DNA from: a virus
Virus genome (UHGV): UHGV-1709118
Reading direction: 5' to 3' (one strand)
Length of the DNA: 61,628 bases
The translations under genes were made by a program, and so were the position numbers. The notes under the pieces were generated by a model, which ran no database searches, was not told the DNA's origin, and saw only the letters and a program-made list of their open reading frames with translations. Shown here piece after piece: positions 815-40,303 of the stretch; the first letter of the stretch is position 1; each line of letters starts with the position of its first letter.

Positions 815-1121
815 ATTAGATGAGAACTCTAACTGTCTCTGGTGATGGAGCCGCAGGCGACATCGGCTGAGACGACTAAGTGTTACCCCAGAAAATTATA
901 ACCTATGTTATAACTCATCTATTTTTGGTATTTTCTGGACGCATTGGTTTTAAAACCAAGAAGGAGAGGAAATATTAAATAAAAGACTTAGATTATAATA
1001 GATAGCTTTCATTTAAGGAGAATTTAACCTTTTATCTATACAGATAATTAATTAAGATTGCGGATGTGCGTGTCAGAGCACACAATCTAGCACCGCATGA
1101 TAAAAAAAAGGAGAATTTTTT

Positions 1122-3440: not shown

Positions 3441-3451
3441 AACAAAAAAAT

Positions 3452-3476
3452 GGGTAAGAGCATTTAGCTCTTACCC
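3452..3476. terminator. bidirectional rho-independent terminator between convergent DGR operon and tail operon
   Basis: gggtaagagc-attta-gctcttaccc with A-run upstream and T-run downstream. Confidence 0.65.
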
Positions 3477-3488
3477 ATTTTATTTTTA

Positions 3489-4091: not shown

Positions 4092-4162
4092 AATTTTCCT
4101 CCTTATATAAAAACATAAGGGGAAGAATAAAATCTTCCCCTTAGAAAAGAATATCTTATTCT

Positions 4163-6352: not shown

Positions 6353-6365
6353 TTATAGCACCTCC

Positions 6366-6974
6366 TTAATAAATAAAATCTATAATTACATTATATAAAT
6401 CTTTATATGGATTTTCTGCATCAAGTTTATATACACCATTAATACCAGTATTATATTGCGCTAACGCCACTCGATAAGCTTCATCATATACAGCCTGAAT
6501 CTGATTATATTCAGCCCAGTAAGCATTATTATGTTCAGGATATTTTTTTTCAAGCTCTGCCATAGAAACTTTTCGAGCTGTTTCCGCAGCTTCTAATTTT
6601 TTCTTACCATCTGAAAGATTTTTTTCTGTTGTTTCAGTATCTAATATGTAATTTTTAGGGCGAAGAAAATATAATCCAGTAATAGCAATATCTTCATCCA
6701 ACTCATAAACTCCCGTGCGGCCTATCATAATATTTTTATTAGTATTCATTACTAATTTAGTACCAGGAGGAGCCTGTATTCCTACTTTAGAAAATTGTTT
6801 ACTTGCATAAATTTCTACTAGATTACGAGTAAAAATATCTATTTTATTAGTTTCATAATCTGGATCAGTAGCAGAAGTAATAGTTTGAGTAGTATTGCCA
6901 TTAGCTGTAGAAATATATCCGCCACTAGAATTATAATCTTCTAAATTATAAATTATCTGACCAACATTTGCCAT
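6366..6974 (-). CDS. tail/baseplate protein, hypothetical
   Basis: 202-aa ORF in tail module. Confidence 0.4.
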   Translation of the reverse strand: MANVGQIIYNLEDYNSSGGYISTANGNTTQTITSATDPDYETNKIDIFTRNLVEIYASKQFSKVGIQAPPGTKLVMNTNKNIMIGRTGVYELDEDIAITGLYFLRPKNYILDTETTEKNLSDGKKKLEAAETARKVSMAELEKKYPEHNNAYWAEYNQIQAVYDEAYRVALAQYNTGINGVYKLDAENPYKDLYNVIIDFIY

Positions 6975-6989
6975 TTAATTTATTCCTCC

Positions 6990-8885: not shown

Positions 8886-8899
8886 ATTCTTCCTCCTCT

Positions 8900-11638: not shown

Positions 11639-11715
11639 AAAATCACACTCCTTTATCTCATTTATCTATTTATTTTAATTTTTTAATTTAAAATATGAAC
11701 TATCCTTGTCCAATA

Positions 11716-11747
11716 AAAAGAAAAAGAGGACGATTAATCGTCCTCTT
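11716..11747 (-). terminator. rho-independent terminator overlapping 3-prime end of 11734-12093 gene
   Basis: minus-strand hairpin aagaggacga-ttaa-tcgtcctctt followed by T-rich run; stop codon lies in the loop. Confidence 0.5.
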
Positions 11748-12093
11748 TAATAATTGGCATTAATTTTCTTACAACATCAATAGGTAAATTAATATATGAT
11801 ATATCCTTTAAACTAATTATATATAAATCAAGCTCTTCTTTTATCATTCCTAATTCTCTAAGCTTTTGATTTACTTCATTCATTTTATCAGTTGGTATAA
11901 TATCATTCTCATCTACATAAACTTTAAATAAATTTCTTCTAGCTTCTTCAATAGCCATATACAAAGGTTCTAACTTTTGCATATTTCTAACTAATTGATA
12001 AGCTAAAGTAACTGGTAAAGAAATTTCATTTTTTTCTTTTAGTTCATATAATGCTTCATATAAACCATAAATTTCATCATTTAATAATGTCAT
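11734..12093 (-). CDS. hypothetical small helical protein (tail module)
   Basis: 119-aa ORF. Confidence 0.4.
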   Translation of the reverse strand: MTLLNDEIYGLYEALYELKEKNEISLPVTLAYQLVRNMQKLEPLYMAIEEARRNLFKVYVDENDIIPTDKMNEVNQKLRELGMIKEELDLYIISLKDISYINLPIDVVRKLMPIIKEDD

Positions 12094-16386: not shown

Positions 16387-16414
16387 TATAAACTCCTTTC
16401 TCTCAAAAAAATAA

Positions 16415-16435
16415 AGGGGAGAAAAATTCTCCCCT
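16415..16435 (-). terminator. rho-independent terminator after tape measure gene
   Basis: hairpin aggggaga-n-tctcccct then T-run on minus strand. Confidence 0.55.
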
Positions 16436-16440
16436 TTAAA

Positions 16441-19400
16441 TTATTTTCTAATACTAGCATATTGAGCCGCATCATTAACAATATTATTAAGAGCTGCTTC
16501 GATTTCTGCTGCACTGGATACACCAGGGAAATCAGCTTGAATATGCACTATCTGTTCAACTATTTGCCCATCACTAGAAATGGTAGTAGAACTAGCCATA
16601 CGAGCGTTTAATAAATTTTGCCCTGCCATTATATTATTATCCAAAATTCTTTCTATTTGTTTAAACAAATTAGGCCCTAATGTTCTAACTGCGGAAACCG
16701 CAGAAAGAATATTTTCAGTATCCTCTTGATTCAAAACTAATTCTTTCTCATGTAAAAATGCTAATTTGCCATCTTCATTATCAAAAGAACCAGTATATCC
16801 TCCTGTTGCATAACCTATTGTATGACTTTTAACAAAATCCTCATATTTGCCAGTTCCGCCATTATCTTTTAGCCATTTCTGAAACTCTGGATCATTTTGC
16901 TTATTATAATAATCTTCATTAGAATAAATATACTGTTTACCTTGTTCAAAATTTTCTCCAAGAATTTTCAAATATCTTTGATATTCTAAACTCTTAAATA
17001 TTTCATCTCCAACTTGTCCACCTTGGCTTAAATAATCATTCATAACAGAAGAATAGTCAATATTAGAATTATACCCTTTCATATCACCAACAGAAGCGGC
17101 AACTGTTCTAGTAGTTACAAAGTTAGACATTTCATACAAAGTATCTAATGCTTGACGTACACACGCTGCATAATTAGACCATTGCTCTGAAGCTTGGCGA
17201 ACTTCTTCAATTTTCTTCCAAACAGCATCTGCGGCTTGAGTACCCGCAGTAGTTAAATCTTGAGTAGATTTAGTAGTATCATCAATAATTTGTTTTAAAG
17301 CATCTACATTTGAACCAGTAGTCCCAGTGACTTCTTCCATAGTGCTATTATAATTATCAGCCGCATTTTCCATTTCATCAAGAGCAGTTTCAAAATATGC
17401 AGTAAAATCAGAAGTACCCATTTGCATAATTTTCATTACATCATTATAAGTATTTCCATATTCTGTAATTATCTCTCCACCTGCATCTGTCATATCTTCT
17501 AAAGATACTTGATATTCTTGCTGAATATAAAGGATTTTATCATTTGCATTTCTACGAATTTCTGCAATCTTTTCTCCACGTTCTTCCTCAGTTAAACTTT
17601 CATCTTCATAAACATCTTTAATTTGGTCTAAAGTATCTTGTTTTAATTGCAGAATTTCATCCATCATATTTTTAACTTGATCTTTCGCTATATTGTAATA
17701 GTTATTTGCCGCATCTTCATACTTTTGTGTAGCTTCATCAATTTTAGACTGATCAGCTGTAAATTGATAATCCCAGTTGCCGGATTCATTGCGGACTAAC
17801 CGCACTGAATTTTTAGCGTTTTGAGCTTCATCCAAAGCATTTTGAGCAAGAGTCATTTGATATTTTGCTTCTAAAATATCCAAATCATATTTAGATAATT
17901 TATTACCTTCACGTCTTACTTCAATTTCTTTTTGTAATGTTTTTAATCTATTCTTAGAAGCTTCATTAGTTTCTTCATCTATTGCTTTTTGAAGTTGTCT
18001 ATTCCATTTACTTACTTCATATGTTTCATTAACTTTATCTAAATATCTTTCTTCTTTACTAATTAAATTATCATATTTTTGCTGCAATAATTCTAAACCC
18101 ATTCCGCCACTAATAGCTTGCTCAAAATCATAAGCAGCTTTCTCAATAGCATTAGTATAATACTCTCTTGCCGTTTCCATAGCTTCTTTAGCTGCATCTA
18201 ACATAGCTTCTTGAGATTCATTAAATTGTTTTAATAAAGCATCACGATTATTTTTAAGAGTATCATAAGCTGCATCTTCTTCAGTAACTCCAGCCAAAGC
18301 TTTTTCTGCTTCTGCTAATTGTTCCGCAGCTTTTTCCATCCATTGCTTTTGTAATTTGGCAGTAGATGTAGCTGTTTCTAATCTTCCTTGAATAGTTTTC
18401 TGTAAAAGTTCAAAATTCTTACCAGTTTTATAAGTTATTCCTTGTAAATCTAATAATTCTTTTACTGAATCTAATACAGTACCATTATGATCTAATTGAT
18501 CAGTAAATTGTGCAAATCTGTCAGCTGCCGCATCAATAACATCAGTTAAATACTCTCTAAGATTTTCTAACCAATCTTTTAAATCAGAAACAGTATCAGC
18601 AATATTACCATGTAAATCTTCTAAAGAATCTATAACACTTTCAAAATCAGCACTGTCTTCAGACTCAGACATAAGATTAAATATTTGATTCATATGTTCT
18701 TCTAAGTCTTTGGCTTTAGCTAAATTGTCTTGCATACCAAAGAAATCAATTTGTCCAGGTTTTTTACCCCAACTAACAGCATCGCCAAAAGCTTCAACAA
18801 CATTTTTACCTATTTCTCTATTAGTATCTTTAAAATCTTTAATCTTTAATTTAACTTCTATAACAGCATTAATACTGCTTAATTTTTCATCAAATTTCTT
18901 TCTAGCCTCTTCGGCAATATTTTCTAAAAGTTCAACTCTTTGCTTTTGATCATTTTCATATTGTTCTAAGATTTCTTTTCTTAAATCAAGCGTTTTCTTT
19001 GCAGCATCAAGAGTATCTTTAAAAGATTCCTGTGCGGTTTTAGAACCTAAAGCATTATATTTTCTTACTACTTTATTATATTCTTCTATTGCCCATTTTT
19101 CTAAATCTTCATAATTTAATAAAGCTTTACTATCAGAATCTATATTTAATTTAACACCAGAAAAATTCTTTTGTAAATCAGTTAAATCTTCTTTTAAATA
19201 TTCTTCAGTTTTTTCTAATTTTTCTTTATATAATTCTTGCTCTTTGTTAATTGCTTCAATTTTTTCTTTATATTTTTCTAATTTCTTAACACCAAAAGCT
19301 CTATCTTTAGCAGTGTCAATCTTATCTAGTAGCTGACTTTGCTCTTCTAGTCTATTATTAATATCGTGATATCTATCATCAAAAATTTCTTCATCTTCGA

Positions 19401-22400
19401 TTTCAGGAGAATCATCTGAGCCAGAGCCGCCACCTCCGCCTTTTCCTTTTCCTCCCTTTCCTTTACCACCTTTGCCTTTTCCTCCTCCTCCACCAGAAGG
19501 ACGATTATTATCAGTAGAAATACCATGAGGATTAAGAGTTCCACTGCCAGTTCCTCCTCCCGAAGGGGCAAAGGCTTTTAAACCATTGGCTAAAACTTGT
19601 TGTTGACCAAACTTTTGTAATTCTTGACCTAATAACTCTAAATTACCGCCCACACTATTATCTTTATTAGGAATAGTAACTGTAGGTTTAGCACCTTTAA
19701 TACTTTTAGAATGACCAAGACTAGCATCCATACTAAACATAGGGCTTCCGCCAGAACCACTACCCTTTAAATCAATATGTGCAGAAGGCATATCCCATTC
19801 AAAAGGAATTTTTCCTCCGGTGACTAAAGCTCCAATTTTATCCTTTAGTCCCCCGCCTAAGCCAATACCACCAGGATTATCAACAACGCCAGTTGCCTGA
19901 ATTGAATAATTAAAATTATTAATAGCTTTTCCCAAAGACACCAAAAGTTGTCCTGCTATTTGACACAAACTACCAATACTAGCCTGTGATTCAGCGGCTA
20001 GACCATTAACTGCAGAAGAAGCAATACTTGTATTTCCTTGCATGGCACTGGCTAATTGACTTTGAGAAGTAATTAAACTAGAATCAAAACCTGCGTTTTC
20101 TGCTTCCATATGGGCCATGATTGCACTAAAAGCTTCAGCATTTGTATCTTTTAAAGACCAAATATCAGCAGCCATAGTGTTACACATATTTTTGAATTTC
20201 GTTGTTGTTGTATCAAAATTATCAGGAAACTCAAGCCAATTTTCATCATTTATATAATTTTTAAAATAATCATAATAAGAAGTAATATCATCTATTGCCT
20301 TTTTAAATCCTTCGGCTTGATCAACTTGTTTTTCCCAAGTATTTAAATTTTGAACTTTTTTCTGAGCATCTTTATAATCTTGTGTAGCTTTAGTTGCATC
20401 ATCAATATTATCAGTAACAACTTTATAACCATCTGCTGTTTTGGTAATATATTTATTAGATTTAGCAGTAATATTCATTAAAGTTTTAGTGCTTTTGACT
20501 GCACCAGCATAATATTCCTGCATATTAGTGCCGCCAGCTTCAACTTCACTAATTAAATCTCTAAAACCATCTGCCAAAGCAGAAGTAGAAGAAATCATAG
20601 TTTTTGCATAATCAAATTCTTTAAGATTATCTATACCATCACTTAATTTTGCAAAATTATCTCCAGTTTCATTAACTCTTTGATTTATTGCATCAAAATA
20701 TTCACTAGCGCTAATCTTTCCCTCTTGAAACGCTTGAGCCTGTCTTCTAAGTGTTTCAGTATTTTTATCAAAATCTTCTCCACTATCTGCACGCTCTTGG
20801 TCAGACCAATTTTTACTACTTTCAATTAAACTACCATAAAGATCAACATACTGCTGAGCATATTCTCTATCAACTTTACCTTTATTTTGCATAGATTCAA
20901 TAGCTTGATCTAATGCCAATTTCTCAGCTTTTTCCATTTCAGTAAAGTCGGTTAAAGATTGAGTAGTTAAAACATACTCATCTCCAACTTTTTTAATATA
21001 TTGAGCATATTCACTATTAGCTTTAATTAGCTCATAGGTTTGATCCATAGTAAGATAGCCCTGTTCTTTATAAGACATCAAAGCTTTTTCTAACGGCTCT
21101 TCACTGGTATTTAAATTTTCTATTTTAGCTTTTGCTGCATCTAATTCAGAAGTATCTACCTTAACTTTAAGGTCTGTATTTTTAGCATTTTCAATAGCTT
21201 CCATTAATTCTCTAAAAGAACCAATGTTTTCTAAATCTAAAGTAAGAATAATATCCCAATCTTCAGCAGTTAATTTATTTAATTGCTCTTCAGTTCCACC
21301 CATTTCAGATTTAATGGTTTCTCTAGCTTGAGACATTCTTTCTGCAATTTGATTAAATAAATCATCAACAGAAATTCCCGCAGCTTCAATGGCAGAACGC
21401 ATTTCATCTGTTAGAGCTAATCCAGCACCTTTAATATCTCCAGAAGATAAAGCTCTAAAAATCTTATCTCTTACTTCATCAAAAGATTCATCATCTAATA
21501 CTGGACGAATAACCATTTCATAATACTGGTTATCAGTAGGATATATTAATTTTCTTAATTCTGCTAATTTATCCTGCATATCTGCAATCATTGACGGATC
21601 GGCCACAATTGCGCCAGAATCAACAGCACCTAAGTAATTAGCATAGTCTTGTTCTAATTCAGCTAAATCTTCTCCTACTTCAGAAGTCATTTGTGCGGTA
21701 GCTTCTGCTATTTGTTGCGTCCAATTCTGATATTGGTCTAATGCTTTTGCCTGTTGGTCAGAATTTAAACTATTATACCATTTATCTAAATCTTCTTGCG
21801 TTTTGAAGTTAGAGGTATCGGCACCAGTTTTACCTTTTGGTTCTACCTTATAAGTCTTGTCATATTTTTTGTCAAAATTATCCGCAATAGCATAAGCCAT
21901 TTCTGCTTGTTTAGCTTTAACTATACGCTCTCTTAAAGTAGCTTGTCTCTCTAAAGAAGCTTCTTGCTGTTTTAAATTAGCTAGCTCATCTTGTTCAACA
22001 AGAGACAAAGAATCTTTAGACTCTAATTCTTCTATCTTTTGTTTAGTTTGCTCTAAAGAACTATTTAACTCATCTAATTTGCTCTTTTGGTCAGTATAAT
22101 TTTGAGTAGCATCCGTAATAGCTTGGCTAGCTTCTTTTTGGGTTACAACTAAAGCATCAACTATTTTTACAATAGCAACTATTGCAAGCGGAATACCTAC
22201 CAAAACACCTAAACTTGCTAAAACCGCCGCTGCAAAATTTTGTTCTGCTAAGGTCGCAAGTCTAGTAGCTGCTGCATGAGCTAATTTCGCAGCTATATTT
22301 CCTTCTTCCGCGGCAGTTGCTAATTTTGTGACAATAGTTCCAGCTAGAGTGGTTGCATTAGCACCAGCCTGAACTGCTTTTAAATCAGCTAATCCTTTAA

Positions 22401-25014
22401 TTAAACCATTAAAAAGACTACCACCACTCATCGCAATCATACCCAAATTGGTTAAAACTTGAGTAAAAGCTTGACCAACAGTAATATTACCTTCTGTAAC
22501 ATCTTGAAAAACTTTGCCCATATTGCTTGCCGCAGAAAGAGCCATTCCAAAATTCATAAGATGATTAGACATACTTACAACTGCTGTAGCCCAATTTTGA
22601 TTACTACTATAACCAGTTTGCAAAGTTTGTACAAATTGTTTCACTTTTTCTTCTAATAATCGAGTCTTATCTGCTGCATCCATTTCTGATGCAGACAACT
22701 CTTTCATTGAAATAATAAACTGATTAATAGCTTCAGGATTACCTCCTAAATCCATTAAAGCTTGTTTTAAAACTTGTAAACCACGAGTTGCTTCACCAGA
22801 TTGAACACCTAAATTGCCAAGAAATTCCTGTAATTTTGGTGTAGACCAATTTTGCATTTCTTCTTTCCATAAGCCAGTTTTTTGAATTAATTCTTGTAAA
22901 ACATTTGAAGTTTCTTTTTGATCTAAATTTAAATTGGCATAAGCTCTTCTAACAGAATCAATAGAAGCAGCCTGAGAAGCAAGTTTTTGCATATTAGCAG
23001 TAATCTTTTCAACTGTTGTATTTACGTCGGTAAAAGCTTGACCGTTTTTAAATATATAAGGAATATCAATATTTATTTTTGCGCTATTAGATACACTAGA
23101 ATTAAATTGTTGAATCCTTTGTTTGAACTTATCTTCCCATCCTGGTTTTGGTTCTATATCTAATAATATAGTAGTTTTATATTCTTCCATATTACCAAGT
23201 AAAGAAGTCTGCTTTTGAGCAGAAGCTACCACTTGCTGACGTAAAACTTCAATGGTACTTAAATCTTGATTAACCTTAGCCATTTGACTTTGATCATAAT
23301 TTTTAGTATATTTATTAATCATACCTTGCAATTGAACTTTTTCTCGCATTAGAGAAATTTCAGTTTCTAAAGCACGATTACCACCAATTATAATATCAAG
23401 ATTTTCCGCTTCAGCGACAGTTTGTTCTTGTAGGCTTCTTGTTAATTTTCCTTGATAACCTGTCATAATCTGAATATTAGTAGCAAAATTTTGTAAACCA
23501 TTTATCAATTTACCGCTATAAACAGAAGTAAGAACAGAACCAACAACCAAAGCAATACCTTTTAATCCACCTAAAGCATTAACAACTTGTGCTATTCCGC
23601 TTAAAAGTGGAGTTAAAACATCATCAATAGCAACAATGCTCTCAGGATTCAAAATGCTATCATAAATATCTTCAGCCGCAGCTTTAACTCTTTTTCTTGC
23701 AGCTTCCCAAGATTCTGCATAAATATCAGCTTGTTTATTTAATTCACCCTCAGAATTTTGAGCAACTTTTAAATTATCTTCAAAGAAATCCCAGTTATCC
23801 ATTAAAGAAACTAGCTGATTATATTGACGAACACCAGCTACTGTTTGTGCTAATGCTACTTGCTGGTCTTTTGCTAAAGTACCCCATTTTGCGCCTATAT
23901 CATCTAAGATAGAATCCATATTACGCAATTCACCATTAGAATCTTTAATTAAAATGCCAACTTTACTTAAAGCTTCCGAATATTTATTTAAATCAGTACC
24001 ATCTTCAAGAGTTTCCCCTAAATTTAAACCTTGAATACGAGCAAAGATAGTTTTTAAAGCAGTACCAACGACATCTTCACTTTGACGAGTTGTAGCAGTA
24101 ATTGTTGCCAAAGCAGAAGCAGCATAATCAAAGCTCAATCCAATCATGTCTGCGATTGATGCAAACTTCTCTAAACCACCTGCAATCTCATCCGAACTAG
24201 AAGCAGTAGCAGCACCTAATGCCACCATCGCATCAGCATAATGCTCTAATGATTGTGAACCATCATAGAAGTTATTCCAAACCGCAGTTAATTGGTCAGA
24301 AACTACTTGAGCACTTTCATTTGCGGCATTAGCCATTTTAATAGTAATATCAGTTCTATCAAGAACTTCTTTATCATTTAAACCTTGCTGATAATATATC
24401 AATGCTGCGTCCGTATAATCTGTTGTTGTTGTACTTAAATTTTTTGCAGCACTATTAGCTTGAACTGCAAAATCAGCCATTTGTTCAGCTGACTGTCCAG
24501 TAACAATTCTAATAGAATTTAAAGATTTGTCTAAAGCTTTAGAATACCCAACACAAGTATTTAAAGCTCCCATAAATCCATGTAACGCACTTGAAGTTAA
24601 TTGCCAACGAGCAGTATTTTTCATTGTTGTCCACAATTCATCTAATACTTTATTAGTACGTCTCATCGGTAATTCCGCAGAAGTAACTGCTTGCGCAACT
24701 TTCATAAAAGCTTGCTGACCAGTAGGGCCTAATTGAGATAATTGCTTAGCATAATCACTAATGGTCATCTTACTATTAGCTAAATTTCTATTAAAAGTTA
24801 CTAAATCTAATTTTCCTGTTTCTTGATTAGTAGCAGTTTTTAAATTATTAGCTAATTCTAATGCAGATTTAGATGCTTCCCGCATACCCTGAGTCATTTG
24901 AGTAGTTGAAGAAGTACCTAATTTTTGTAAAGCTTTTACAGCATCATTTAAAGACGCTTTTAATTGTGAAGTATCGCCAGTAAAGCCTACTTCATAATTA
25001 AGTCTTTTAGCCAT
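16441..25014 (-). CDS. tail tape measure protein
   Basis: 2857-aa, largely helical/coiled-coil ORF between chaperone-like gene and tail tip genes; internal Gly/Lys low-complexity tract. Confidence 0.8.
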   Translation of the reverse strand: MAKRLNYEVGFTGDTSQLKASLNDAVKALQKLGTSSTTQMTQGMREASKSALELANNLKTATNQETGKLDLVTFNRNLANSKMTISDYAKQLSQLGPTGQQAFMKVAQAVTSAELPMRRTNKVLDELWTTMKNTARWQLTSSALHGFMGALNTCVGYSKALDKSLNSIRIVTGQSAEQMADFAVQANSAAKNLSTTTTDYTDAALIYYQQGLNDKEVLDRTDITIKMANAANESAQVVSDQLTAVWNNFYDGSQSLEHYADAMVALGAATASSSDEIAGGLEKFASIADMIGLSFDYAASALATITATTRQSEDVVGTALKTIFARIQGLNLGETLEDGTDLNKYSEALSKVGILIKDSNGELRNMDSILDDIGAKWGTLAKDQQVALAQTVAGVRQYNQLVSLMDNWDFFEDNLKVAQNSEGELNKQADIYAESWEAARKRVKAAAEDIYDSILNPESIVAIDDVLTPLLSGIAQVVNALGGLKGIALVVGSVLTSVYSGKLINGLQNFATNIQIMTGYQGKLTRSLQEQTVAEAENLDIIIGGNRALETEISLMREKVQLQGMINKYTKNYDQSQMAKVNQDLSTIEVLRQQVVASAQKQTSLLGNMEEYKTTILLDIEPKPGWEDKFKQRIQQFNSSVSNSAKINIDIPYIFKNGQAFTDVNTTVEKITANMQKLASQAASIDSVRRAYANLNLDQKETSNVLQELIQKTGLWKEEMQNWSTPKLQEFLGNLGVQSGEATRGLQVLKQALMDLGGNPEAINQFIISMKELSASEMDAADKTRLLEEKVKQFVQTLQTGYSSNQNWATAVVSMSNHLMNFGMALSAASNMGKVFQDVTEGNITVGQAFTQVLTNLGMIAMSGGSLFNGLIKGLADLKAVQAGANATTLAGTIVTKLATAAEEGNIAAKLAHAAATRLATLAEQNFAAAVLASLGVLVGIPLAIVAIVKIVDALVVTQKEASQAITDATQNYTDQKSKLDELNSSLEQTKQKIEELESKDSLSLVEQDELANLKQQEASLERQATLRERIVKAKQAEMAYAIADNFDKKYDKTYKVEPKGKTGADTSNFKTQEDLDKWYNSLNSDQQAKALDQYQNWTQQIAEATAQMTSEVGEDLAELEQDYANYLGAVDSGAIVADPSMIADMQDKLAELRKLIYPTDNQYYEMVIRPVLDDESFDEVRDKIFRALSSGDIKGAGLALTDEMRSAIEAAGISVDDLFNQIAERMSQARETIKSEMGGTEEQLNKLTAEDWDIILTLDLENIGSFRELMEAIENAKNTDLKVKVDTSELDAAKAKIENLNTSEEPLEKALMSYKEQGYLTMDQTYELIKANSEYAQYIKKVGDEYVLTTQSLTDFTEMEKAEKLALDQAIESMQNKGKVDREYAQQYVDLYGSLIESSKNWSDQERADSGEDFDKNTETLRRQAQAFQEGKISASEYFDAINQRVNETGDNFAKLSDGIDNLKEFDYAKTMISSTSALADGFRDLISEVEAGGTNMQEYYAGAVKSTKTLMNITAKSNKYITKTADGYKVVTDNIDDATKATQDYKDAQKKVQNLNTWEKQVDQAEGFKKAIDDITSYYDYFKNYINDENWLEFPDNFDTTTTKFKNMCNTMAADIWSLKDTNAEAFSAIMAHMEAENAGFDSSLITSQSQLASAMQGNTSIASSAVNGLAAESQASIGSLCQIAGQLLVSLGKAINNFNYSIQATGVVDNPGGIGLGGGLKDKIGALVTGGKIPFEWDMPSAHIDLKGSGSGGSPMFSMDASLGHSKSIKGAKPTVTIPNKDNSVGGNLELLGQELQKFGQQQVLANGLKAFAPSGGGTGSGTLNPHGISTDNNRPSGGGGGKGKGGKGKGGKGKGGGGGSGSDDSPEIEDEEIFDDRYHDINNRLEEQSQLLDKIDTAKDRAFGVKKLEKYKEKIEAINKEQELYKEKLEKTEEYLKEDLTDLQKNFSGVKLNIDSDSKALLNYEDLEKWAIEEYNKVVRKYNALGSKTAQESFKDTLDAAKKTLDLRKEILEQYENDQKQRVELLENIAEEARKKFDEKLSSINAVIEVKLKIKDFKDTNREIGKNVVEAFGDAVSWGKKPGQIDFFGMQDNLAKAKDLEEHMNQIFNLMSESEDSADFESVIDSLEDLHGNIADTVSDLKDWLENLREYLTDVIDAAADRFAQFTDQLDHNGTVLDSVKELLDLQGITYKTGKNFELLQKTIQGRLETATSTAKLQKQWMEKAAEQLAEAEKALAGVTEEDAAYDTLKNNRDALLKQFNESQEAMLDAAKEAMETAREYYTNAIEKAAYDFEQAISGGMGLELLQQKYDNLISKEERYLDKVNETYEVSKWNRQLQKAIDEETNEASKNRLKTLQKEIEVRREGNKLSKYDLDILEAKYQMTLAQNALDEAQNAKNSVRLVRNESGNWDYQFTADQSKIDEATQKYEDAANNYYNIAKDQVKNMMDEILQLKQDTLDQIKDVYEDESLTEEERGEKIAEIRRNANDKILYIQQEYQVSLEDMTDAGGEIITEYGNTYNDVMKIMQMGTSDFTAYFETALDEMENAADNYNSTMEEVTGTTGSNVDALKQIIDDTTKSTQDLTTAGTQAADAVWKKIEEVRQASEQWSNYAACVRQALDTLYEMSNFVTTRTVAASVGDMKGYNSNIDYSSVMNDYLSQGGQVGDEIFKSLEYQRYLKILGENFEQGKQYIYSNEDYYNKQNDPEFQKWLKDNGGTGKYEDFVKSHTIGYATGGYTGSFDNEDGKLAFLHEKELVLNQEDTENILSAVSAVRTLGPNLFKQIERILDNNIMAGQNLLNARMASSTTISSDGQIVEQIVHIQADFPGVSSAAEIEAALNNIVNDAAQYASIRK

Positions 25015-25052
25015 AATTAATCTCCTTTCACTCTTTGTGCATATAAAAAATT

Positions 25053-25080
25053 AAAGCTCTGAGAAATTTCTCAGAGCTTT
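25053..25080 (-). terminator. hairpin terminator/attenuator between chaperone-like gene and tape measure gene
   Basis: 12-bp stem aaagctctgaga-aatt-tctcagagcttt followed by T-run on minus strand. Confidence 0.55.
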
Positions 25081-25132
25081 AAAAAAATTCTCTATAAAAT
25101 TTTAATATTTATTAGAAATATATTATCTTAAT

Positions 25133-25745: not shown

Positions 25746-27152
25746 TTAAATAGATATTCCATTCGCTGCTGTTAAATATTTTCTTAAATTAGAACTAACA
25801 TATCTACCACTAATATGACCTTGCATTGCAATACTATTAATTTGATTATAAGCTCTTTTTACACGAACAGCTTTATTCGCTTTATTTGTTATATCTTTTT
25901 GACCAACCCAACTATTATCAACAGCACTTTTAGTCAAAGAAATACTAAATAAATCACCACTACTTAAAGAACCATATAAATTTCCTTCTCTAACCGCATT
26001 TTTAGCATCATTAACTATATCAGCTAATATAGCTAATATTGGATATGCTCTAAAATTATATACTAATACTCTTTGTGCTTCAGCAGTATTAAAACCAATT
26101 AAAAAGTTTTCTGCAAATTTAGCAATTAAATCCTGCCGAATAATTCTAAAGTTAGTATCCAATGCTCCTGATTCTTGTCCGGCGCTAAAAGCTAAAGTAT
26201 TATATATTTGATAATCAATTGAGTTTCCACCACCATACAATTGATGTAAAGCTGGAATTAAGAAAGAATTTTTTCCAGAATAACTTGTTAAAGACAAACC
26301 TCCCGCTGTTCTATAAGTCTTTACAGTAGCAAAAGTTTCTACATCAAAAGTATCATAAAGTTCAACACCTTGGCTGCCTTGTGAACCGCCCATATCATAA
26401 GAAAAATATGAATTTCCTAAACTAATATCCGCGGATTTAGATTGAATTTCCTTAAATTCTCCACTAAAACTTACTCTAATATTTTGTGATTGAGTACCAA
26501 GTAATAAGTCTTTTACTTCTGTGTCACTTTTAGCTTCAGCGTATGTCCCTATTAAAGCCGCTAAAGCTTCTGAAGGTTTAGTTAAAATTGAATTTAGAGT
26601 ATTCCGATAATTTTCTCCATTCATAGCAGCTTCAATAACTTTCATAAAAGCTTGAACATTAATTAATTCATTTATAGAAATATCAGAATAAATTTGTTGA
26701 GGATTATCTTTTAACATTTCATATAAAGCAACAGCATCTTTATTTTGATGGAAAACAGCTATTATTTGAGCCAATGATTTTATTGCCCCATCTTTATCTC
26801 CTGATTTTAAAGCTGCAACATATCCATCAACTCCCATATTATATCCACCAATATTTCCTCCTAATTTGCTTGCAGCTTTATTATATTCTTCAACAATTTT
26901 ATTTTCTATTTGTTTTTCCATTTTTTCAAATTTTGCTAATTCCATACCTTCTATAAAAGCTTTCTTTTTAGCATCTGTTTGTTGGCTAGCGAGTTGCGCC
27001 TTCATCATATTTAAATATCTTGTTTTAATAGCTGCCATTTTATTTGTTGTTTGAGCATAAGGAGTTAAAGTTCCTCCTATATAATGTTCAGGTTTACTAT
27101 GAATATTAGGATAGCTAGTTCCATCATATTCAAAAACAAAATCACTACTCAT
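25746..27152 (-). CDS. tail structural protein, role unknown
   Basis: 468-aa ORF between major tail candidate and chaperone. Confidence 0.35.
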   Translation of the reverse strand: MSSDFVFEYDGTSYPNIHSKPEHYIGGTLTPYAQTTNKMAAIKTRYLNMMKAQLASQQTDAKKKAFIEGMELAKFEKMEKQIENKIVEEYNKAASKLGGNIGGYNMGVDGYVAALKSGDKDGAIKSLAQIIAVFHQNKDAVALYEMLKDNPQQIYSDISINELINVQAFMKVIEAAMNGENYRNTLNSILTKPSEALAALIGTYAEAKSDTEVKDLLLGTQSQNIRVSFSGEFKEIQSKSADISLGNSYFSYDMGGSQGSQGVELYDTFDVETFATVKTYRTAGGLSLTSYSGKNSFLIPALHQLYGGGNSIDYQIYNTLAFSAGQESGALDTNFRIIRQDLIAKFAENFLIGFNTAEAQRVLVYNFRAYPILAILADIVNDAKNAVREGNLYGSLSSGDLFSISLTKSAVDNSWVGQKDITNKANKAVRVKRAYNQINSIAMQGHISGRYVSSNLRKYLTAANGISI

Positions 27153-27594: not shown

Positions 27595-28536
27595 TTAAAA
27601 AACCGCCTTACAATTCTCGCGGTAAGCGGTATCTTCACCAGTGCTATCTTCAATTACCTGAATAGCAGCAAGAACCTTTTTAGTAGGATCAAACTTAGTG
27701 TATCCAGGGAAAGCATCCATAGTAAAGGTAAAGGTAGAAGGATCGCCAGAACTTGCCATAGAGAAAGTAAAGTTAGACTGAATCTTACCATTAGGAATGA
27801 TGAACTCAGCAGGCATGTCAACACCATCAGACTCTCTACGGAATAAAGTAGAACCTTCTAGGTAATAACTACCAGCAAATTCATCAGGAGTAATTTCAAT
27901 CATCTTAGCATTGCCAGTCTTCTTAACATAATAGTCAACAAGAACAACAGAACCTTCAGCTAATTTCTCAACACCTTCAGCATCAGCGTAACAAACAATA
28001 GTAGTTTTCTTCTTAGTGTCATCATAAGTCATAGAAGCAGGGACACAAGGCTCAACTTTAACTTCACCGGCATCATCAAGAGCCATGCAGAAAACATCTG
28101 CTTCCTTATGGAAATCATAATTTGTTCCTGACTTATCCCCTTCTTGCGCACGTCCGCCATTCCAGCAAATTTTACCATCAACAGCAAATTTGCCTTCAGC
28201 ATCAACCTGCACTTGAGAAGTAGTATGAACATAAATAGGGGCTTCTGCAGAAGCATCCATCAAACCAGCACCGGAAAGAATTGCAAAACTTTCAGGGGAA
28301 AGCAATGCATCTTCCATTGTAAATGTAAGAGTCTTCTCACCTTCCCAGGCAATTAATCTAGAGTTACCACGTCCGCCTTGAGCATAAACTGTGGTAGCTT
28401 GACCTTCTAAGCTAGAAGTCTTTAAAGTATCAAAATAAAGAACAGGCTCATTCTTATAAAAAGTACGAGCACCTAGAGTTTGTCTTGCTTTAGCACGTAA
28501 CACAACATCACAGATCTCGCGTACACCAAATCTCAT
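27595..28536 (-). CDS. major tail protein candidate
   Basis: 313-aa ORF, GC-rich relative to neighbours like the capsid gene, located between connector genes and tape measure. Confidence 0.45.
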   Translation of the reverse strand: MRFGVREICDVVLRAKARQTLGARTFYKNEPVLYFDTLKTSSLEGQATTVYAQGGRGNSRLIAWEGEKTLTFTMEDALLSPESFAILSGAGLMDASAEAPIYVHTTSQVQVDAEGKFAVDGKICWNGGRAQEGDKSGTNYDFHKEADVFCMALDDAGEVKVEPCVPASMTYDDTKKKTTIVCYADAEGVEKLAEGSVVLVDYYVKKTGNAKMIEITPDEFAGSYYLEGSTLFRRESDGVDMPAEFIIPNGKIQSNFTFSMASSGDPSTFTFTMDAFPGYTKFDPTKKVLAAIQVIEDSTGEDTAYRENCKAVF

Positions 28537-35320: not shown

Positions 35321-36943
35321 TTAATTCATAGCTGCTCTATTGGCTATTGTTTTATCACTTTTCTGTTCATCTGCTTTTTCAGGTCTGCCAGCTCCAGTTT
35401 CTTGCTGTTGTTGTATTTTAGCCTGAGCATTATTATTATCTTTATTATTATTATTAAGGTTTTTACTACTCATAGTAGAACTCATCATAGGAGGAATCAT
35501 AATATCAGAAAGCTTCAATATATCATTCTCAAACTGAATAGAAGCTAAAATACTTGATTGAGAATGTCCTAAAGCAATTTGCGGTAACATTTTTGAATAA
35601 CCAATTTGAGTTTGTTCTTTATACATTTTGGACAAATCTTTATAATTATAAATAGTTGTCTCTAAAATGCAAACTTTAAAATTATAAGAATTTTTATTAA
35701 ACTTTTTAACAATTCTATTTAAAAGATTTTGATATTGATAAATCAAATCTCTCATTACTGCTTCATCATTGGCTATTGATTTTTCCAAAGATAAATTACC
35801 ATCTGTATTAAATAGATTTTGAGACACACCCAAATTATTATAAACAGTACGTTCAACTTTTTCTAAATCATCAGTTTTAGTTGTACTATTAGAATCTTGC
35901 ATATCTGCAACATCAATATCAGCAAAAGTAGTAAGAACATCCACTCCCACTGCCCGACGAAGCATCGCAACCGCATTATTATGTATATCTTTTGCTTCAT
36001 CAACGTCAAAAATTAAATCACCATTTTTATCTAATGGTAATTTTTGAATAACAATTTTTAATAATTGCTGCATAGTTTTTTTTCTATCTAATTCTTGCGC
36101 CTGGTCTAAATCTATAATTGAAGGAATTGCTCCTACCAACATAGGAAAATCATTATCGCCTAAATTAAATTTTACAGTACAATCTGGGTCTAACATTGCC
36201 CAACCCATTGAATCTCCAGGATAATCACCTTTAAGTCTATTTTCTTCATAATCTACATAAGCTTTTTGAATTTCTTTAGGAAACATTTTTAAAACTTTTA
36301 TTCTATACTGCGGATCAGTAAAATAAACATTAAAAAAACTCATATGCAATTCAACAACAGGATCAATACCTCTATTAAATCTACTGCGGCAATACTTTGC
36401 AGGTAACTGTTGTATACTAAATTTATCATTAAATTCTAAAATATAACCATAATAAGAACCACATTTAATTACTTCTAATGCAATATTTCCAAAAAGACGT
36501 TTAATATCAGAATTATCTAAATAATCTAAAGCTTTCATAAAATCATTTAATACTTTTTTTGATTCTTTAGCTCGATTATTATTAACAAAAGAAGTAGTAA
36601 CAAACCAATCATATTTATACAATAGAGCTAAATATTTACACATTCTTTGATAAATACCGCTAGCCTCATAAAAATATTTAGAAACTTCTCTTAAAGTTTC
36701 ATAATCATGTTTATCAATAGCATTAAGAATAAAAGCCTTATCGCCATAATTGCGGTTTACTTTTCTATAAATACCTAAGTTCATTACCGCATCATCTAAA
36801 GTTTTTAAGCCTACTCGAATTTTTGAAAAATCTTCCGGCACACTATCTTTTCCAAATTGAGCTTCATATTCTGATTTAGTAATAGGATTTCCGCGTAGCA
36901 TATTAAAACCTTTATTTTTAATTTCTACTTGTCTATCTCGCAT
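35321..36943 (-). CDS. portal protein candidate
   Basis: 540-aa ORF immediately downstream of terminase/endonuclease. Confidence 0.6.
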   Translation of the reverse strand: MRDRQVEIKNKGFNMLRGNPITKSEYEAQFGKDSVPEDFSKIRVGLKTLDDAVMNLGIYRKVNRNYGDKAFILNAIDKHDYETLREVSKYFYEASGIYQRMCKYLALLYKYDWFVTTSFVNNNRAKESKKVLNDFMKALDYLDNSDIKRLFGNIALEVIKCGSYYGYILEFNDKFSIQQLPAKYCRSRFNRGIDPVVELHMSFFNVYFTDPQYRIKVLKMFPKEIQKAYVDYEENRLKGDYPGDSMGWAMLDPDCTVKFNLGDNDFPMLVGAIPSIIDLDQAQELDRKKTMQQLLKIVIQKLPLDKNGDLIFDVDEAKDIHNNAVAMLRRAVGVDVLTTFADIDVADMQDSNSTTKTDDLEKVERTVYNNLGVSQNLFNTDGNLSLEKSIANDEAVMRDLIYQYQNLLNRIVKKFNKNSYNFKVCILETTIYNYKDLSKMYKEQTQIGYSKMLPQIALGHSQSSILASIQFENDILKLSDIMIPPMMSSTMSSKNLNNNNKDNNNAQAKIQQQQETGAGRPEKADEQKSDKTIANRAAMN

Positions 36944-37340: not shown

Positions 37341-37371
37341 TTATGAACTAAGAGTTTTTACTCTTAGTTCA
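37341..37371 (-). terminator. hairpin between terminase and endonuclease genes
   Basis: atgaactaagagt-tttt-actcttagttcat 13-bp stem. Confidence 0.4.
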
Positions 37372-39109
37372 TAAACATCAAATCTGCTACCTTAAAATGT
37401 TTGCGCTTACGTCTATTATCTTCCTCTTGTTTAATGTAATATAAACCATATTCTAAAGAAGATACTTTATCTTTTTTAATTTTTCTATTTACTTGTTTGA
37501 GAATAATATTAACACCTTCGTTTTCTTCTCGAAGGTTAGTTAGCTCTTCTTTAAGTATGGAAGTTAGACTAAATGGAATAACATATTTTGACCTTTCTCG
37601 TGGAGTCATACCTTGGCCCAATTTAGTTTCCATTAATTTCATCATTGCTTCACGTTCATCAAGTAAAAATTTTACTTTACCAGCATTTAATTGTGTTTGC
37701 AAATTAGCATGAGCTTCAGTATTAATTGTAGCATTTGCTTTAATTAAATACATTGCTTCATCTTCTGTATCATCAGTTCTAAATTTTTTATAATAATTTT
37801 CTTCATCATTATAAACACCAAAAGGTGGATAATATTCACCTGTTTTATCATCTTCTTGGACTTTTATCATATAATCAATAAGTCCAATACCTAAGCCATT
37901 CGCGTCTATTACCAAACGTTTTGCTTTATATTTATAATATAATTTTTTCAACATAATAGCTTGATTTTCAAAATGCTCATCTTCCATAGTTACTATATTA
38001 ACTAAGGATTTAATGGATGGGCCTTGTGGTTGCGGAATGACCTTTAAAATGCAAGCAACTGTATCGCAACCTTTACGTCCAACGTCTACAGAAACTACAT
38101 AATAAGAAGAAGCAGATGATCTTCCAGAATATTCATATTCTGGTTTTTGAATTTTTCTGTTTCTATCAAAAACCTCACTGTTAAAGAAAGCATCTTCAAC
38201 TGTTCCACTCCAGATCGACTCGTACTCTCGACCAAAGGAAGCTTCATTAAAAGTAGGGTCACGCTTTAAATTAATTAAGAAATCAGAATCTAATAATCCG
38301 ACTAACACAGGTATACGCCAAGAACCACCCATAACAATACTTTGCCCTGGATCAACCACCATACGTACTAACAAAGTAATAAGTTTTTCATAGGGAAATG
38401 TATTCTTCCAACCGGCTGTTGTAACGTATATCTGCGACTTATTTAAGGATTCTTCGGGGTGGACAGAACCATCCATACATCTACGTGAAACGTTCATTGT
38501 AGGGATTATCACTTCATTTAGTATAGTTCCATCTACACCAACGCATTCCTCAACTAGTCCGCCATGTCTACGTTTACCACGTGAACTTTCTTTAGCCGCT
38601 ACAATATCAAAATAACTACCACTTTTAAATTTATATATACAATAATCTTTACTAATTTGAGTTTGTCCTCTTCCCCAATCAATTTCTTTTTTAAAAGCTG
38701 GTACAAGTTTACATATTTCTTCTACCTTTTCTTTCACAATTGTAGCTGCCTGCTCTTTACCACCGGAAGTAACAAACAACTTTGCACCAGGGTAAAGTAC
38801 ACAACGACACATTAAAACCAGAATCGAAAGAAAAGATTTACTGTACGCTCGAGGAAAGGTCATGTATACATATTTATAACGCATCGCAGCTCTAAGAAAG
38901 ACCCGCTGATAGTAGTAAAATTCTAGTTGTTTTTTACGAGAACTATCTCCTCCGTCCTGTAAAAAATCCACAAATAAATCTGGATATTCTCGCCAAAAAG
39001 AAATATATTGACGAGCAACAGGTAAAATAGCTCTTATTCTCTCTTCTGAAATACCTATTTTTTTTCTATTATTAGATAATTCTAATAATTGTTGTAATGC
39101 CATTATCAT
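37364..39109 (-). CDS. terminase large subunit
   Basis: 581-aa ORF; Walker-A-like PRAYSKSF, nuclease-like VSVDVGRKG and LVIDANGLG segments; sits before portal. Confidence 0.7.
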   Translation of the reverse strand: MIMALQQLLELSNNRKKIGISEERIRAILPVARQYISFWREYPDLFVDFLQDGGDSSRKKQLEFYYYQRVFLRAAMRYKYVYMTFPRAYSKSFLSILVLMCRCVLYPGAKLFVTSGGKEQAATIVKEKVEEICKLVPAFKKEIDWGRGQTQISKDYCIYKFKSGSYFDIVAAKESSRGKRRHGGLVEECVGVDGTILNEVIIPTMNVSRRCMDGSVHPEESLNKSQIYVTTAGWKNTFPYEKLITLLVRMVVDPGQSIVMGGSWRIPVLVGLLDSDFLINLKRDPTFNEASFGREYESIWSGTVEDAFFNSEVFDRNRKIQKPEYEYSGRSSASSYYVVSVDVGRKGCDTVACILKVIPQPQGPSIKSLVNIVTMEDEHFENQAIMLKKLYYKYKAKRLVIDANGLGIGLIDYMIKVQEDDKTGEYYPPFGVYNDEENYYKKFRTDDTEDEAMYLIKANATINTEAHANLQTQLNAGKVKFLLDEREAMMKLMETKLGQGMTPRERSKYVIPFSLTSILKEELTNLREENEGVNIILKQVNRKIKKDKVSSLEYGLYYIKQEEDNRRKRKHFKVADLMFMN

Positions 39110-40301: not shown

Positions 40302-40303
40302 CT

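Follow-up and report, generated by a model that had tools for sequence, protein, structure and literature searches.

Gene order around the tape measure gene

The window, a stretch of 61,628 nucleotides from virus genome UHGV-1709118, carries on its minus strand a series of virion genes in the order portal, head genes, YomU-type tail tube, 82-aa protein, 468-aa protein, YomO-like protein, tape measure protein (TMP), 1424-aa protein and tail proteins (Table 1). According to the ORF list and its translation, the TMP gene starts with ATG and encodes 2857 aa followed by a stop codon. A Shine-Dalgarno sequence (AAAGGAG), read directly from the DNA, is located 7 nt upstream of this ATG, and the first residues of the protein, MAKRLNY, are conserved among homologues. 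At a genome GC content of about 30%, a reading frame of 8.5 kb is not attributable to chance. Furthermore, over 40 assemblies obtained independently (Logan, ENA, JGI and NCBI) contain the ORF intact (2851-2871 aa, 83-100% identity), which argues against an assembly artefact and confirms the single uninterrupted frame described in the earlier note.

Table 1. Coordinates of the TMP gene, its segments and the neighbouring features in the window.
Feature	TMP residues	Position (nt)	Strand	Remarks
Tail tube protein, YomU type, 313 aa		27595..28536	-	phrog_2729 virion structural protein
YomO-like (weak) gene, 182 aa		25133..25681	-	phrog_30570; possible tail assembly chaperone
Terminator-like hairpin, 14 pairs + T run		25051..25082	-	between the 182-aa gene and the TMP gene
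Shine-Dalgarno sequence of the TMP gene		25022..25028	-
TMP gene	1-2857	16441..25014	-
Conserved N-terminal TMP core	5-497	23524..25002	-	PF10145 at aa 188-394 (nt 23833-24453)
Hydrophobic Ala/Gly-rich region	808-955	22150..22593	-	indel-rich in relatives
Central Gly/Pro-poor ruler segment, presumably helical	956-1698	19921..22149	-	from composition
Gly/Pro-rich, indel-rich, poorly conserved segment (hinge)	1699-1874	19393..19920	-	predicted coil
Gly/Lys tract GGGGGKGKGGKGKGGKGKGGGGGSGSDD	1841-1868	19411..19494	-	within 19400-19560 of the earlier note
Constant C-terminal module	1875-2857	16444..19392	-	starts with the FDDRYHDIN helix
Best-conserved patch of the C-terminal module	2351-2450	17665..17964	-	53-70% identity to the clade at 39% identity
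C-terminal motif (ATGGYTGSF...KLAFLHEKELVLNQEDTENIL)	2735-2813	16576..16812	-	common to cultured large Firmicute siphophages
Terminator-like hairpin, 12 pairs + T run		16412..16438	-	3 nt past the TMP stop codon
Downstream gene, 1424 aa		12112..16386	-	no family match; presumed distal tail/tip by position

The identity of the protein as a tape measure, proposed from the sequence alone, was borne out by family matches. PF10145 (PhageMin_Tail) aligned over profile positions 2-201 of 201 with a score of 93.8 bits against a cutoff of 33.2 (E 1.6e-26), the TMP families PHROG 4211 and 34405 were matched, and a member at 89% identity is named 'TP901 family phage tail tape measure protein' by JGI. The position of the gene, downstream of the YomU-type tube gene and the YomO-like gene, likewise fits a TMP. 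These two assignments are strengthened by L002, a contig with a 97%-identical TMP, in which genes of equal length and position match PF27173 YomU_Tube and, weakly, PF27287 YomO. Synteny of the 1424-aa gene is conserved in L002 and L003. In the 118-nt gap upstream of the TMP gene, no open frame was found that would prolong the 182-aa ORF, as a G/GT-type chaperone pair with a -1 frameshift would need; such a pair is common next to TMP genes of this type but does not define them.

A myovirus reading, with the 468-aa protein as sheath and the 182-aa protein as tube, was rejected, the L002 counterparts being the YomU tube (313 aa) and the YomO-like protein (182 aa). Among the genes scanned, several of which (including the 468-aa gene) were without a match, none matched a family named as tail sheath. 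Stop-codon recoding of the phAss-1 kind was also rejected for this region, since every structural gene reads as a long uninterrupted frame under code 11; neither tRNAs nor suppressor tRNAs were found in the window, and no template or variable repeats of a diversity-generating retroelement (DGR) were found near the reverse transcriptase gene. Megablast of the 18 kb around the TMP gene against 50,697 phage records gave no match, which indicates that there is no close cultured relative among them. A study of Ruminococcus gnavus phages, consulted for relatives with long tails, had no bearing on this virus. The virus is classed as an uncultured gut siphophage with an SPbeta-type tail module, of low GC content and with a genome of about 135-148 kb. 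It probably infects Clostridia, with Eubacterium, Oscillospiraceae and other Clostridia of the source samples as candidate hosts; in a host scan of the genome collection only three phage-sized contigs were binned within MAGs, which is weak host evidence.

Family membership and architecture of the protein

A family of giant TMPs with a constant C-terminal module (C-module), phAss-1 included, was defined operationally in this analysis. Homologues of the C-module were detected in 2703 library representatives at E<=1e-3, including 1188 at E<=1e-30, and no cultured phage carrying the module was found by tblastn against the phage collection. The family is very large and almost entirely uncultured, with the phAss-1 group as its only described members. 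Among 138 near-full-length representatives, TMP length ranges from 2038 to 5731 aa with a median of 2861 aa. The earlier note had ranked the protein as unusually long and among the longest TMPs; its length is in fact ordinary within its large family, and longer TMPs occur in cultured and described phages, such as phAss-1 relatives (3149-3209 aa), Lactococcus phage 949 (3276 aa) and Thermus phage P23-45 (5002 aa). In the clade at 39% identity, TMPs measure 2832-2892 aa, so total length is constrained within about 2%. Self-BLAST of the TMP gave no internal duplications that would explain its length at E<=10, and the same search on the 5731-aa relative gave none at E<=1e-5; apart from a 5-aa Gly/Lys unit, no internal repeats were detectable in the TMP.

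The N-terminal core (N-core) is well conserved, aa 101-450 being 66-75% identical to their counterparts in the 39% clade, and it aligns to aa 8-497 of the phAss-1 TMP and to aa 331-720 of SPbeta YomI. Kyte-Doolittle analysis placed the strongest membrane-like segment at aa 931-949 (score 2.73), within the hydrophobic region, and a weaker hydrophobic segment at aa 477-498 (nt 23521-23586; 1.82 at aa 477-495). Except in the hinge, the composition of the protein is Gly/Pro-poor and rich in helix formers throughout. The central ruler is moderately conserved within the family and cannot be aligned to phAss-1. In 98 divergent representatives, the equivalent of the part on the N-terminal side of the junction varies between 1011 and 4733 aa (SD 430), whereas the distance from the RY motif to the C-terminus has a median of 980 aa (SD 53) and amounts to 977 aa in the window.

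From aa 1879 onward, the C-module aligns to aa 2098-3151 of the phAss-1 TMP, and most library alignments of the module begin at query positions 175-220. Its best-conserved patch contains many invariant columns and a predicted beta-hairpin at aa 2404-2418 (VRLVRNESGNWDYQF), seen as strands E745-749 and E755-759 in a low-confidence AlphaFold2 model. This model covers aa 1660-2857 (1198 aa) and was built from a 17-sequence alignment as a monomer of a presumed oligomeric fibre; since its mean pLDDT is 42, its coil and helix calls, which include almost continuous helices from aa 1875 onward, are only indicative. At the C-terminal end of the module, the motif shared with cultured phages has 42.7% identity to YomI aa 2143-2230, and tblastn matches to it were found in SPbeta-like phages, Enterococcus VRE9/EF1, Brevibacillus Sundance, Alicyclobacillus phages and the phage of C. 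botulinum D-1873.

The proposed hinge and its Gly/Lys tract

The low-complexity tract is present as quoted in the earlier note and contains about 18 Gly in 28 residues, against 6.5% Gly in the TMP overall, a difference that is not explained by chance. Its core is a minisatellite with a period of 15 nt (2.9 copies at positions 19442-19485; Tandem Repeats Finder). Across 44 close relatives the KGKGG unit occurs in 1-4 copies, always in frame. The indel comparison among relatives, suggested in the same note, revealed a hotspot: the length of the tract spans 18 aa, compared with 11 aa in the remainder of the TMP. In one subclade (2844 aa) the tract is almost missing (KGGSKG), which shows that a long Gly/Lys run is not required.

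The tract forms the end of a Gly/Pro-rich segment of about 175 aa, with 45 Gly and 10 Pro in aa 1701-1900. Compared with the distant clade, this hinge has only 13-22% identity and 19-41% gaps, and it appears as coil, at low confidence, at residues 40-215 of the AlphaFold2 model. Homology to phAss-1 restarts exactly at aa 1879, and the phAss-1 protein has its own GGGGKGGGG tract before DDRY. In the 98 divergent representatives, the 35 aa preceding the (D/E)RY(H/K) motif are enriched in Gly (3.5x), Pro (4.5x), Ser (2.1x) and Lys (2.0x), although the junction falls within the top 5% of Gly-richness of its own protein in only 56% of them. Conserved residues, namely NP.G..(S/T)DN.R and (D/E)RYH, flank the tract. 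What had been called an insert is accordingly better described as an expansion of variable length, located at a junction that the whole family retains, phAss-1 included, and the suggestion that a Gly-rich tract may separate domains finds support in both the phAss-1 alignment and the 98 representatives.

Judged from these comparisons, the tract is a flexible linker that varies in repeat number and lies at the junction, common to the family, before the constant C-module of about 980 aa. The reading preferred here, to which a probability of roughly 80% is assigned, is that of a TP901-type giant TMP in which a flexible hinge connects a ruler of variable length to a constant distal module. The alternative that survives best is that the tract has no hinge role and is filler left by neutral replication slippage where the TMP sequence is irrelevant. 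Such filler would be expected to behave as the KGKGG unit does, varying freely in copy number among near-identical phages and nearly lost in one subclade, within a region that is the least conserved part of the TMP; in addition, polyX is found in 95.5% of TMPs, low-complexity polyG and polyA tracts being common (PMC13585406). However, the G/P/S/K-rich junction recurs at identities of 50% or less, including phAss-1 (about 25%) and TMPs of 3.7-5.7 kaa, and all observed indels are in frame. This recurrence across divergent TMPs implies that position and composition are maintained while sequence is not. A Gly-rich, slippage-prone tract of low complexity is usual in TMPs (PMC13585406), but here it occupies one fixed, compositionally conserved junction instead of being scattered. 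A wholly neutral origin is considered rather unlikely, while part of the tract signal may be a by-product of neutral slippage.

Proteolytic processing of TMPs has precedents in lambda gpH and T5 pb2, and the hinge could likewise be a cleavage site that yields an N-terminal ruler and a C-terminal product of about 980 aa, either as the tail matures or at ejection. Such a site would be suited by a Lys-rich stretch that is exposed and disordered, is followed by an acidic patch and coincides with a conserved boundary between modules, as well as by the constant length of the C-terminal part. Nevertheless, the tract has no conserved cleavage motif, it varies in sequence and length, and the conserved residues are located on its flanks, outside the tract itself, so processing at this site appears improbable. 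Adaptive fine-tuning of tail length through copy-number change is more doubtful still. With tube rings rising by about 4 nm, the 18-aa range of the tract would amount to 2.7 nm if helical and to no more than about 6 nm when extended, that is, to about one ring in roughly 100 and less than 1.5% of the tail. The large length differences of the family, moreover, are in the central ruler and not in the tract. For this tract, these values weigh against the role in tail-length tuning that has been proposed for polyX content (PMC13585406), even though the tract is the indel hotspot of the gene.

Finally, the giant ORF could contain an embedded enzymatic or effector domain, which would make the tail much shorter than 0.15 nm x 2857. 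Precedents are SPbeta YomI, with its lytic domains, and the P23-45 TMP, which includes a virion RNA polymerase (PMC10770324), and the approximately 2400 aa that have no Pfam annotation could accommodate such a domain. It is nevertheless very improbable given that the search for lytic domains suggested in the earlier note returned PF10145 as the only Pfam match, with neither transglycosylase nor peptidase and only sub-threshold noise across the whole protein (E<=0.01) and three sub-segments (E<=1), that PDB sequence searches with the TMP (as with the 468-aa and 182-aa proteins) gave no match, and that composition outside the hinge is Gly/Pro-poor and rich in helix formers, with near-continuous helices in the 1198-aa model (mean pLDDT 42).

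Comparison with known tape measure proteins and predicted function

The closest described system is phAss-1 ('Phassvirus', OQ749652), whose members are, like the phage of the window, human-gut viruses and predicted siphoviruses, with genomes of about 133-136 kb (PMC10607447). Its TMP shares the N-core, the whole C-module (aa 1879-2854) and a Gly/Lys tract at the same junction. It differs in having about 25-29% identity, a central portion of about 1400 aa that is unalignable, an additional length of about 300 aa and TAG read as Gln (code 15), whereas in the window the standard code leaves the TMP gene and the genes next to it open. SPbeta YomI (about 2290 aa) shares the N-core and, in an alignment of 89 residues, the C-terminal GGYTG...KLAFLH.KEL.LN motif, but homology is no wider: YomI is without the DRY hinge and most of the approximately 980-aa C-module, and it is annotated as a transglycosylase, in contrast to the TMP of the window. 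The likeness extends to the tail module, with a homologous YomU tube and a YomO-like gene upstream of the TMP, and to a genome larger than 120 kb and a long flexible tail, which for the phage of the window is predicted.

Lactococcus phage 949, a siphophage of Firmicutes with a genome above 110 kb, has the N-core in common with the window and a very long TMP, longer than that studied here, with no detectable homology to the C-module or hinge. TP901-1, whose TMP (937 aa) is the dissected prototype of PF10145, belongs to the same Pfam family; this protein is helical, with hydrophobic regions and essential N- and C-termini (PMC5099701). It is one third the length, and its length variation has been attributed to repeats of the 11-aa type. 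The TMP of Thermus phages P23-45/P74-26 is also giant and defines an extremely long siphovirus tail (PMC10770324). Its N-terminus is the virion RNA polymerase, whereas that of the window is an ordinary PF10145 core; P23-45 was absent among the matches listed in both phage-collection searches, and Pfam and PDB sequence searches gave no two-barrel RNA polymerase domain of its type in the TMP of the window.

The rule of about 0.15 nm per residue invoked in the earlier note is documented, with 0.145 nm/aa and about 127 non-contributing residues in TP901-1 (PMC5099701). Published calibrations of this kind would give a tail of about 400-440 nm, in line with the 400 nm or more proposed in the earlier note and in agreement with the cultured calibrator, phage 949, whose tail measures 500 nm (PMC3888941). 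Both tail length and morphology are thus predictions from sequence, for a protein whose C-module is absent from the cultured phages searched. In the proposed mechanism, the TMP would lie as an extended helical oligomer in the lumen of the tube, setting a tail of this length with about 100 tube rings, and its C-terminus would be anchored in the tail tip. The plan, which is shared across the family and is shown by the comparisons, runs from a TP901-type N-core of about 500 aa through hydrophobic segments to a lineage-variable, Gly/Pro-poor ruler, followed by one Gly/Pro/Ser/Lys-rich disordered hinge and the C-module of about 980 aa, which begins with the (D/E)RY(H/K) helix and finishes in the motif common with YomI. 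The Gly/Lys tract would represent the slippage-prone end of the hinge, with selection acting on composition (flexible and basic, then an acidic patch) and not on sequence or exact length; copy-number changes of 5 aa, being smaller than one tube ring, would be tolerated. The hinge would mechanically uncouple the constant distal module, the part expected to exit the tail first at infection, from the variable ruler. A more speculative extension, considered unlikely as a whole, is that the hinge acts as a functional element in more than 1000 lineages, joining rulers of 1000-4700 aa to an invariant distal unit of about 980 aa (about 145 nm) that, once freed or cut at the hinge, refolds into a trans-envelope DNA conduit in Gram-positive (Clostridia) hosts, with the basic-then-acidic hinge as the switch.

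A long TMP gene and a low-complexity tract are both common in long-tailed phages and ordinary in themselves. The family to which they belong here comprises gut and Clostridia-associated siphophages of about 140 kb with predicted tails of 300-850 nm, of which only the phAss-1 group, with its alternative genetic code, had been described. For giant TMPs, the architecture provides a simple, testable rule in which a ruler of variable length is joined by a single flexible, basic hinge to a distal module that stays constant at about 980 aa. In addition, the naturally occurring copy-number variants of the minisatellite could be used to test how exactly tail length is set by TMP length. If the constant module forms a DNA conduit, it would help to explain the post-ejection function of very long TMPs and would also serve as a sequence marker for the family.

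A tape measure protein in a head-to-tail structural block

The 2857-aa protein is a member of the TP901/PF10145 tape measure protein (TMP) family, with profile, context and C-terminal motif in agreement. Pfam PF10145 (PhageMin_Tail) matches aa 188-394 (93.8 bits, cutoff 33.2), and the PHROG tape-measure families 4211 and 34405, whose profiles span 2625 and 2675 positions, match the first 500 aa, and the central and C-terminal parts more weakly. The gene lies within a minus-strand head-to-tail block; short genes separate the 313-aa virion protein from the TMP, after which come a 1424-aa protein and tail proteins. In a contig carrying a 97%-identical TMP, precomputed Pfam labels call the 313-aa gene PF27173 YomU_Tube and the 182-aa gene directly 5' of the TMP PF27287 YomO (weak), and the tail module is therefore of the SPbeta siphovirus type; no family match named a tail sheath. 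The 468-aa protein, without match in Pfam, PHROG or PDB sequence searches, may serve as a chaperone in tail assembly, decorate the tube or have some other role, and no canonical G/GT frameshift pair was found upstream of the TMP gene.

Features of the window discussed in the text
Feature	Position (nt)	Strand	Remarks
Reverse transcriptase, 328 aa	1368-2354	plus	Pfam RVT_1, 53.8 bits; phrog_1423, E 2e-57
DUF4376-like ORF	2354-3013	plus	24.2 bits, just under the 25-bit Pfam cutoff; follows reverse transcriptase
Terminator-like hairpin	16412-16438	minus	12 pairs + T run; 3 nt past TMP stop
TMP ORF, 2857 aa	16441..25014	minus	ATG start; ORF list and translation
Gly/Lys tract	19411-19494	minus	aa 1841-1868
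Terminator-like hairpin	25051-25082	minus	14 pairs + T run; in the 118-nt gap between 182-aa and TMP genes
468-aa protein	25746-27152	minus	between tube and TMP genes; position conserved
313-aa virion protein	27595..28536	minus	after head genes
Portal	35321..36943	minus
581-aa protein	37364..39109	minus	terminase large-subunit-like PHROG matches
Two ORFs upstream of 581-aa gene	39106-40410, 40304-41350	minus	HNH-like signatures
Conserved 66-nt element, six copies	41490, 48345, 50446, 53927, 54544, 57032	plus
Further TTGAC...TATTATAT elements, two	46188, 56954

The reading frame is well supported. A Shine-Dalgarno sequence (AAAGGAG) lies 7 nt 5' of the start codon, and in a window of ~30% GC an open frame of 8.5 kb cannot have arisen by chance. 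An essentially identical 2857-aa protein is present in the protein database, together with clusters at 83-97% identity (2854-2865 aa) and >100 clusters at 39% identity (2832-2892 aa); >40 full-length close relatives among the cluster members measure 2851-2871 aa. The refuting condition of the earlier note, a frame split on resequencing, was not borne out, as the database proteins stem from independent Logan, ENA, JGI and NCBI assemblies with contigs of up to ~148 kb. Strong terminator-like hairpins flank the gene on both sides, and the upstream one could act as an attenuator that limits read-through into the low-copy TMP gene from the tube genes, whose products are needed in abundance.

Several other features accompany this block. 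The 581-aa protein matches the terminase large subunit weakly (phrog_5909, E 4.7e-4). Separate PHROG families of unknown function match it strongly in the N-part (aa 14-220) and the C-part (aa 355-580), a pattern suggestive of an unusual fusion or of a segment inserted between the two. One of the two ORFs upstream of it resembles a sigma factor (phrog_5767). The reverse transcriptase gene adjoins the tail-fibre region and could belong to a diversity-generating retroelement, but searches of 1-12000 and of the whole window turned up no pair of template and variable repeats. The six 66-nt elements, all in the higher-GC, plus-strand half, carry a near-consensus TTGACA-17-TATAAT followed by a common ACAGAAATTAAGAAAGAGG leader; they resemble a set of strong promoters of host type for early or middle expression.

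Length of the protein and of the tail

With aa 1660-2857 as query, a profile-free exhaustive search of 1.84 billion cluster representatives matched 2703 proteins at E<=1e-3 (1188 at E<=1e-30). Among the best 149 of these, the 138 proteins >2000 aa have a median length of 2861 aa (10th-90th percentile 2583-3143, maximum 5731), and the window TMP is therefore typical of its own family. The cultured Lactococcus phage 949 encodes a TMP of 3276 aa, and TMPs of 3149-3209 aa and 5002 aa have been described in the phAss group (PMC10607447) and in Thermus phage P23-45 (PMC10770324). Thus, the protein is long, but neither unusually so nor among the longest, as the earlier note had put it. Far longer relatives include the family representatives P0237 (4255 aa), P0235, P0252, P0256 and P0266 (3682-3762 aa) and P0259, which at 5731 aa exceeds the P23-45 protein described as giant and, at 0.15 nm/aa, would correspond to a predicted tail length of ~850 nm.

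TP901-1 mutants yield 0.145 nm per residue, with ~127 residues making no contribution (PMC5099701), while the 500-nm tail of phage 949 (PMC3888941) corresponds to 0.153 nm/aa. Applied to the window, these calibrations give (2857-127) x 0.145 = 396 nm and 2857 x 0.153 = 436 nm, and the ~400 nm or more predicted in the earlier note is a sound inference. Siphovirus tube rings rise by ~4 nm, and the predicted tail of ~400-440 nm would comprise roughly 100 of them.

Protein anatomy and the Gly/Lys tract

The TMP has a five-part architecture. Relative to homologues at 39% identity (the 39% clade), aa 101-450 are 66-75% identical, aa 550-950 only ~20%, the hydrophobic region being gapped, and aa 1700-1850 form the conservation minimum (13-22%, 19-41% gaps), with peaks at aa 2150-2450 and 2750-2800 (43-70%). 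There are two hydropathy peaks, one over aa 477-498 and a strong one over aa 931-949, and Gly and Pro are rare throughout except in aa 1701-1900 (45 Gly, 10 Pro). An AlphaFold2 model of aa 1660-2857 is of low confidence (mean pLDDT 42), as expected when a fibrous oligomer is modelled as a single chain, but its secondary structure is still indicative: coil is predicted over aa ~1699-1874 (the hinge) save one short helix, then almost unbroken helices from aa 1875 (FDDRYH...) to ~2640, with a beta-hairpin at aa 2404-2418 within the most conserved patch, and a mixed C-terminal region. Neither an internal duplication nor a PDB sequence match was detected for the TMP.

The Gly/Lys tract quoted in the earlier note holds ~18 Gly in 28 residues, against 6.5% Gly in the whole protein, and its core in DNA is a 15-nt tandem repeat of 2.9 copies (19442-19485). 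Its flanks are conserved in the alignment, with NP.G(I/V).(S/T)DN.R upstream and, downstream, an acidic stretch that leads into (D/E)DRYH.IN. In 44 close relatives, the DNNRPS-to-DDSPEI segment ranges from 15 to 33 aa, with 1, 2, 3 (commonest) or 4 KGKGG units and single-Gly differences, in frame without exception. The indel comparison suggested earlier thus yields 18 aa of variation in the tract versus 11 aa (2829-2840) over the rest of the protein. The 39% clade comprises a subclade with GGKKGKGGGGGG-type tracts of variable length and another in which the tract is nearly absent (KGGSKG). The tract is therefore a minisatellite prone to slippage, and its exact length is not critical. Low-complexity tracts are near-universal in TMPs (PMC13585406). 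As a fine-tuner of tail length the tract is a poor candidate, since its whole 18-aa range amounts to 2.7 nm as helix and <= ~6 nm extended, or ~1 tube ring of ~100.

A probable hinge before a constant C-terminal module

When the first helix of the C-terminal module was mapped onto the 138 diverse representatives, 116 matched, 98 of them with the RY motif at the mapped site. Low-complexity basic sequence recurs just upstream, e.g. ...GGGGGGGGGKKAKKLDKKDPEDEKERYHEVN and ...KEKKGKGKGGKKGGDDNKKTIEELDKILERYHEIN, and likewise at the same junction in the metagenomic human gut phage phAss-1 (...KKSGGGGKGGGGSAPK...DDRY). The 35 residues before the motif are enriched in Gly (3.5x), Pro (4.5x), Ser (2.1x) and Lys (2.0x) relative to the same proteins overall, and D, E and K abound in the 12 adjoining it. 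The C-terminus lies a median of 980 aa past the motif (SD 53; window 977 aa), whereas the N-side spans 1011-4733 aa (SD 430). Even P0259 has the same N-core, no internal repeats, and one Gly/Pro-rich segment (~4600-4800) with ~1000 aa after it. These distances place lineage length differences in the N-side and central part, with the Gly-rich linker as the boundary of a constant module. The role suggested earlier for the tract, a possible separator of functional domains, gains support, while its description as an insert does not hold, as the linker recurs family-wide.

No nucleotide-level relative was found among 50,697 phage records. By tblastn, cultured phages (SPbeta-like, Enterococcus EF1/VRE9, Lactococcus 949-like, Brevibacillus Sundance, Alicyclobacillus KKP_3916, C. 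botulinum D-1873) resemble the window TMP only in its N-terminal core, its last ~130 aa or both, and none has the full architecture; phAss-1 is the only named phage sharing more. Its genome is 136 kb, with TAG read as Gln and a TMP reported at 3149 aa (PMC10607447); translation in code 15 gives a 3155-codon open frame. In the alignment, window aa 5-497 pair with phAss-1 TMP residues 8-497 and aa 1879-2854 with residues 2098-3151, and the middle parts do not align; the window protein is a distant homologue of the phAss-1 TMP. Since phAss-1 uses code 15 in its structural genes whereas those of the window are all open in the standard code, related giant-TMP phages differ in stop-codon recoding; no tRNA genes were found in the 61,628-nt window. 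Three related loci, on phage-sized contigs (~148 kb) or fragments, were binned with Eubacterium, Clostridia and Oscillospiraceae MAGs, a weak hint at such a host that is consistent with the Eubacteriales host guessed for phAss-1 (PMC10607447).

By analogy with the TP901-1 dissection (PMC5099701), and with lambda and T5, the TMP would be stretched out along the tube lumen. Its C-terminus would nucleate tail assembly with tip proteins and its N-terminus would end head-proximally, where tube polymerisation would halt. The hinge, conserved in composition and variable in length, is preferably read as a flexible linker, basic then acidic, that would uncouple the constant distal module, first out at infection, from the variable ruler. 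Neutral filler and a proteolytic processing site are rival readings of it. A hidden enzymatic domain is the weakest alternative, none being detectable in the whole protein or three sub-segments. As no lytic domain was found, a lysin-carrying TMP of the SPbeta YomI type was rejected. In the literature consulted on TMPs we did not find the rule of a variable ruler, one hinge and a constant ~980-aa module for a family of >1000 clusters at 50% identity.
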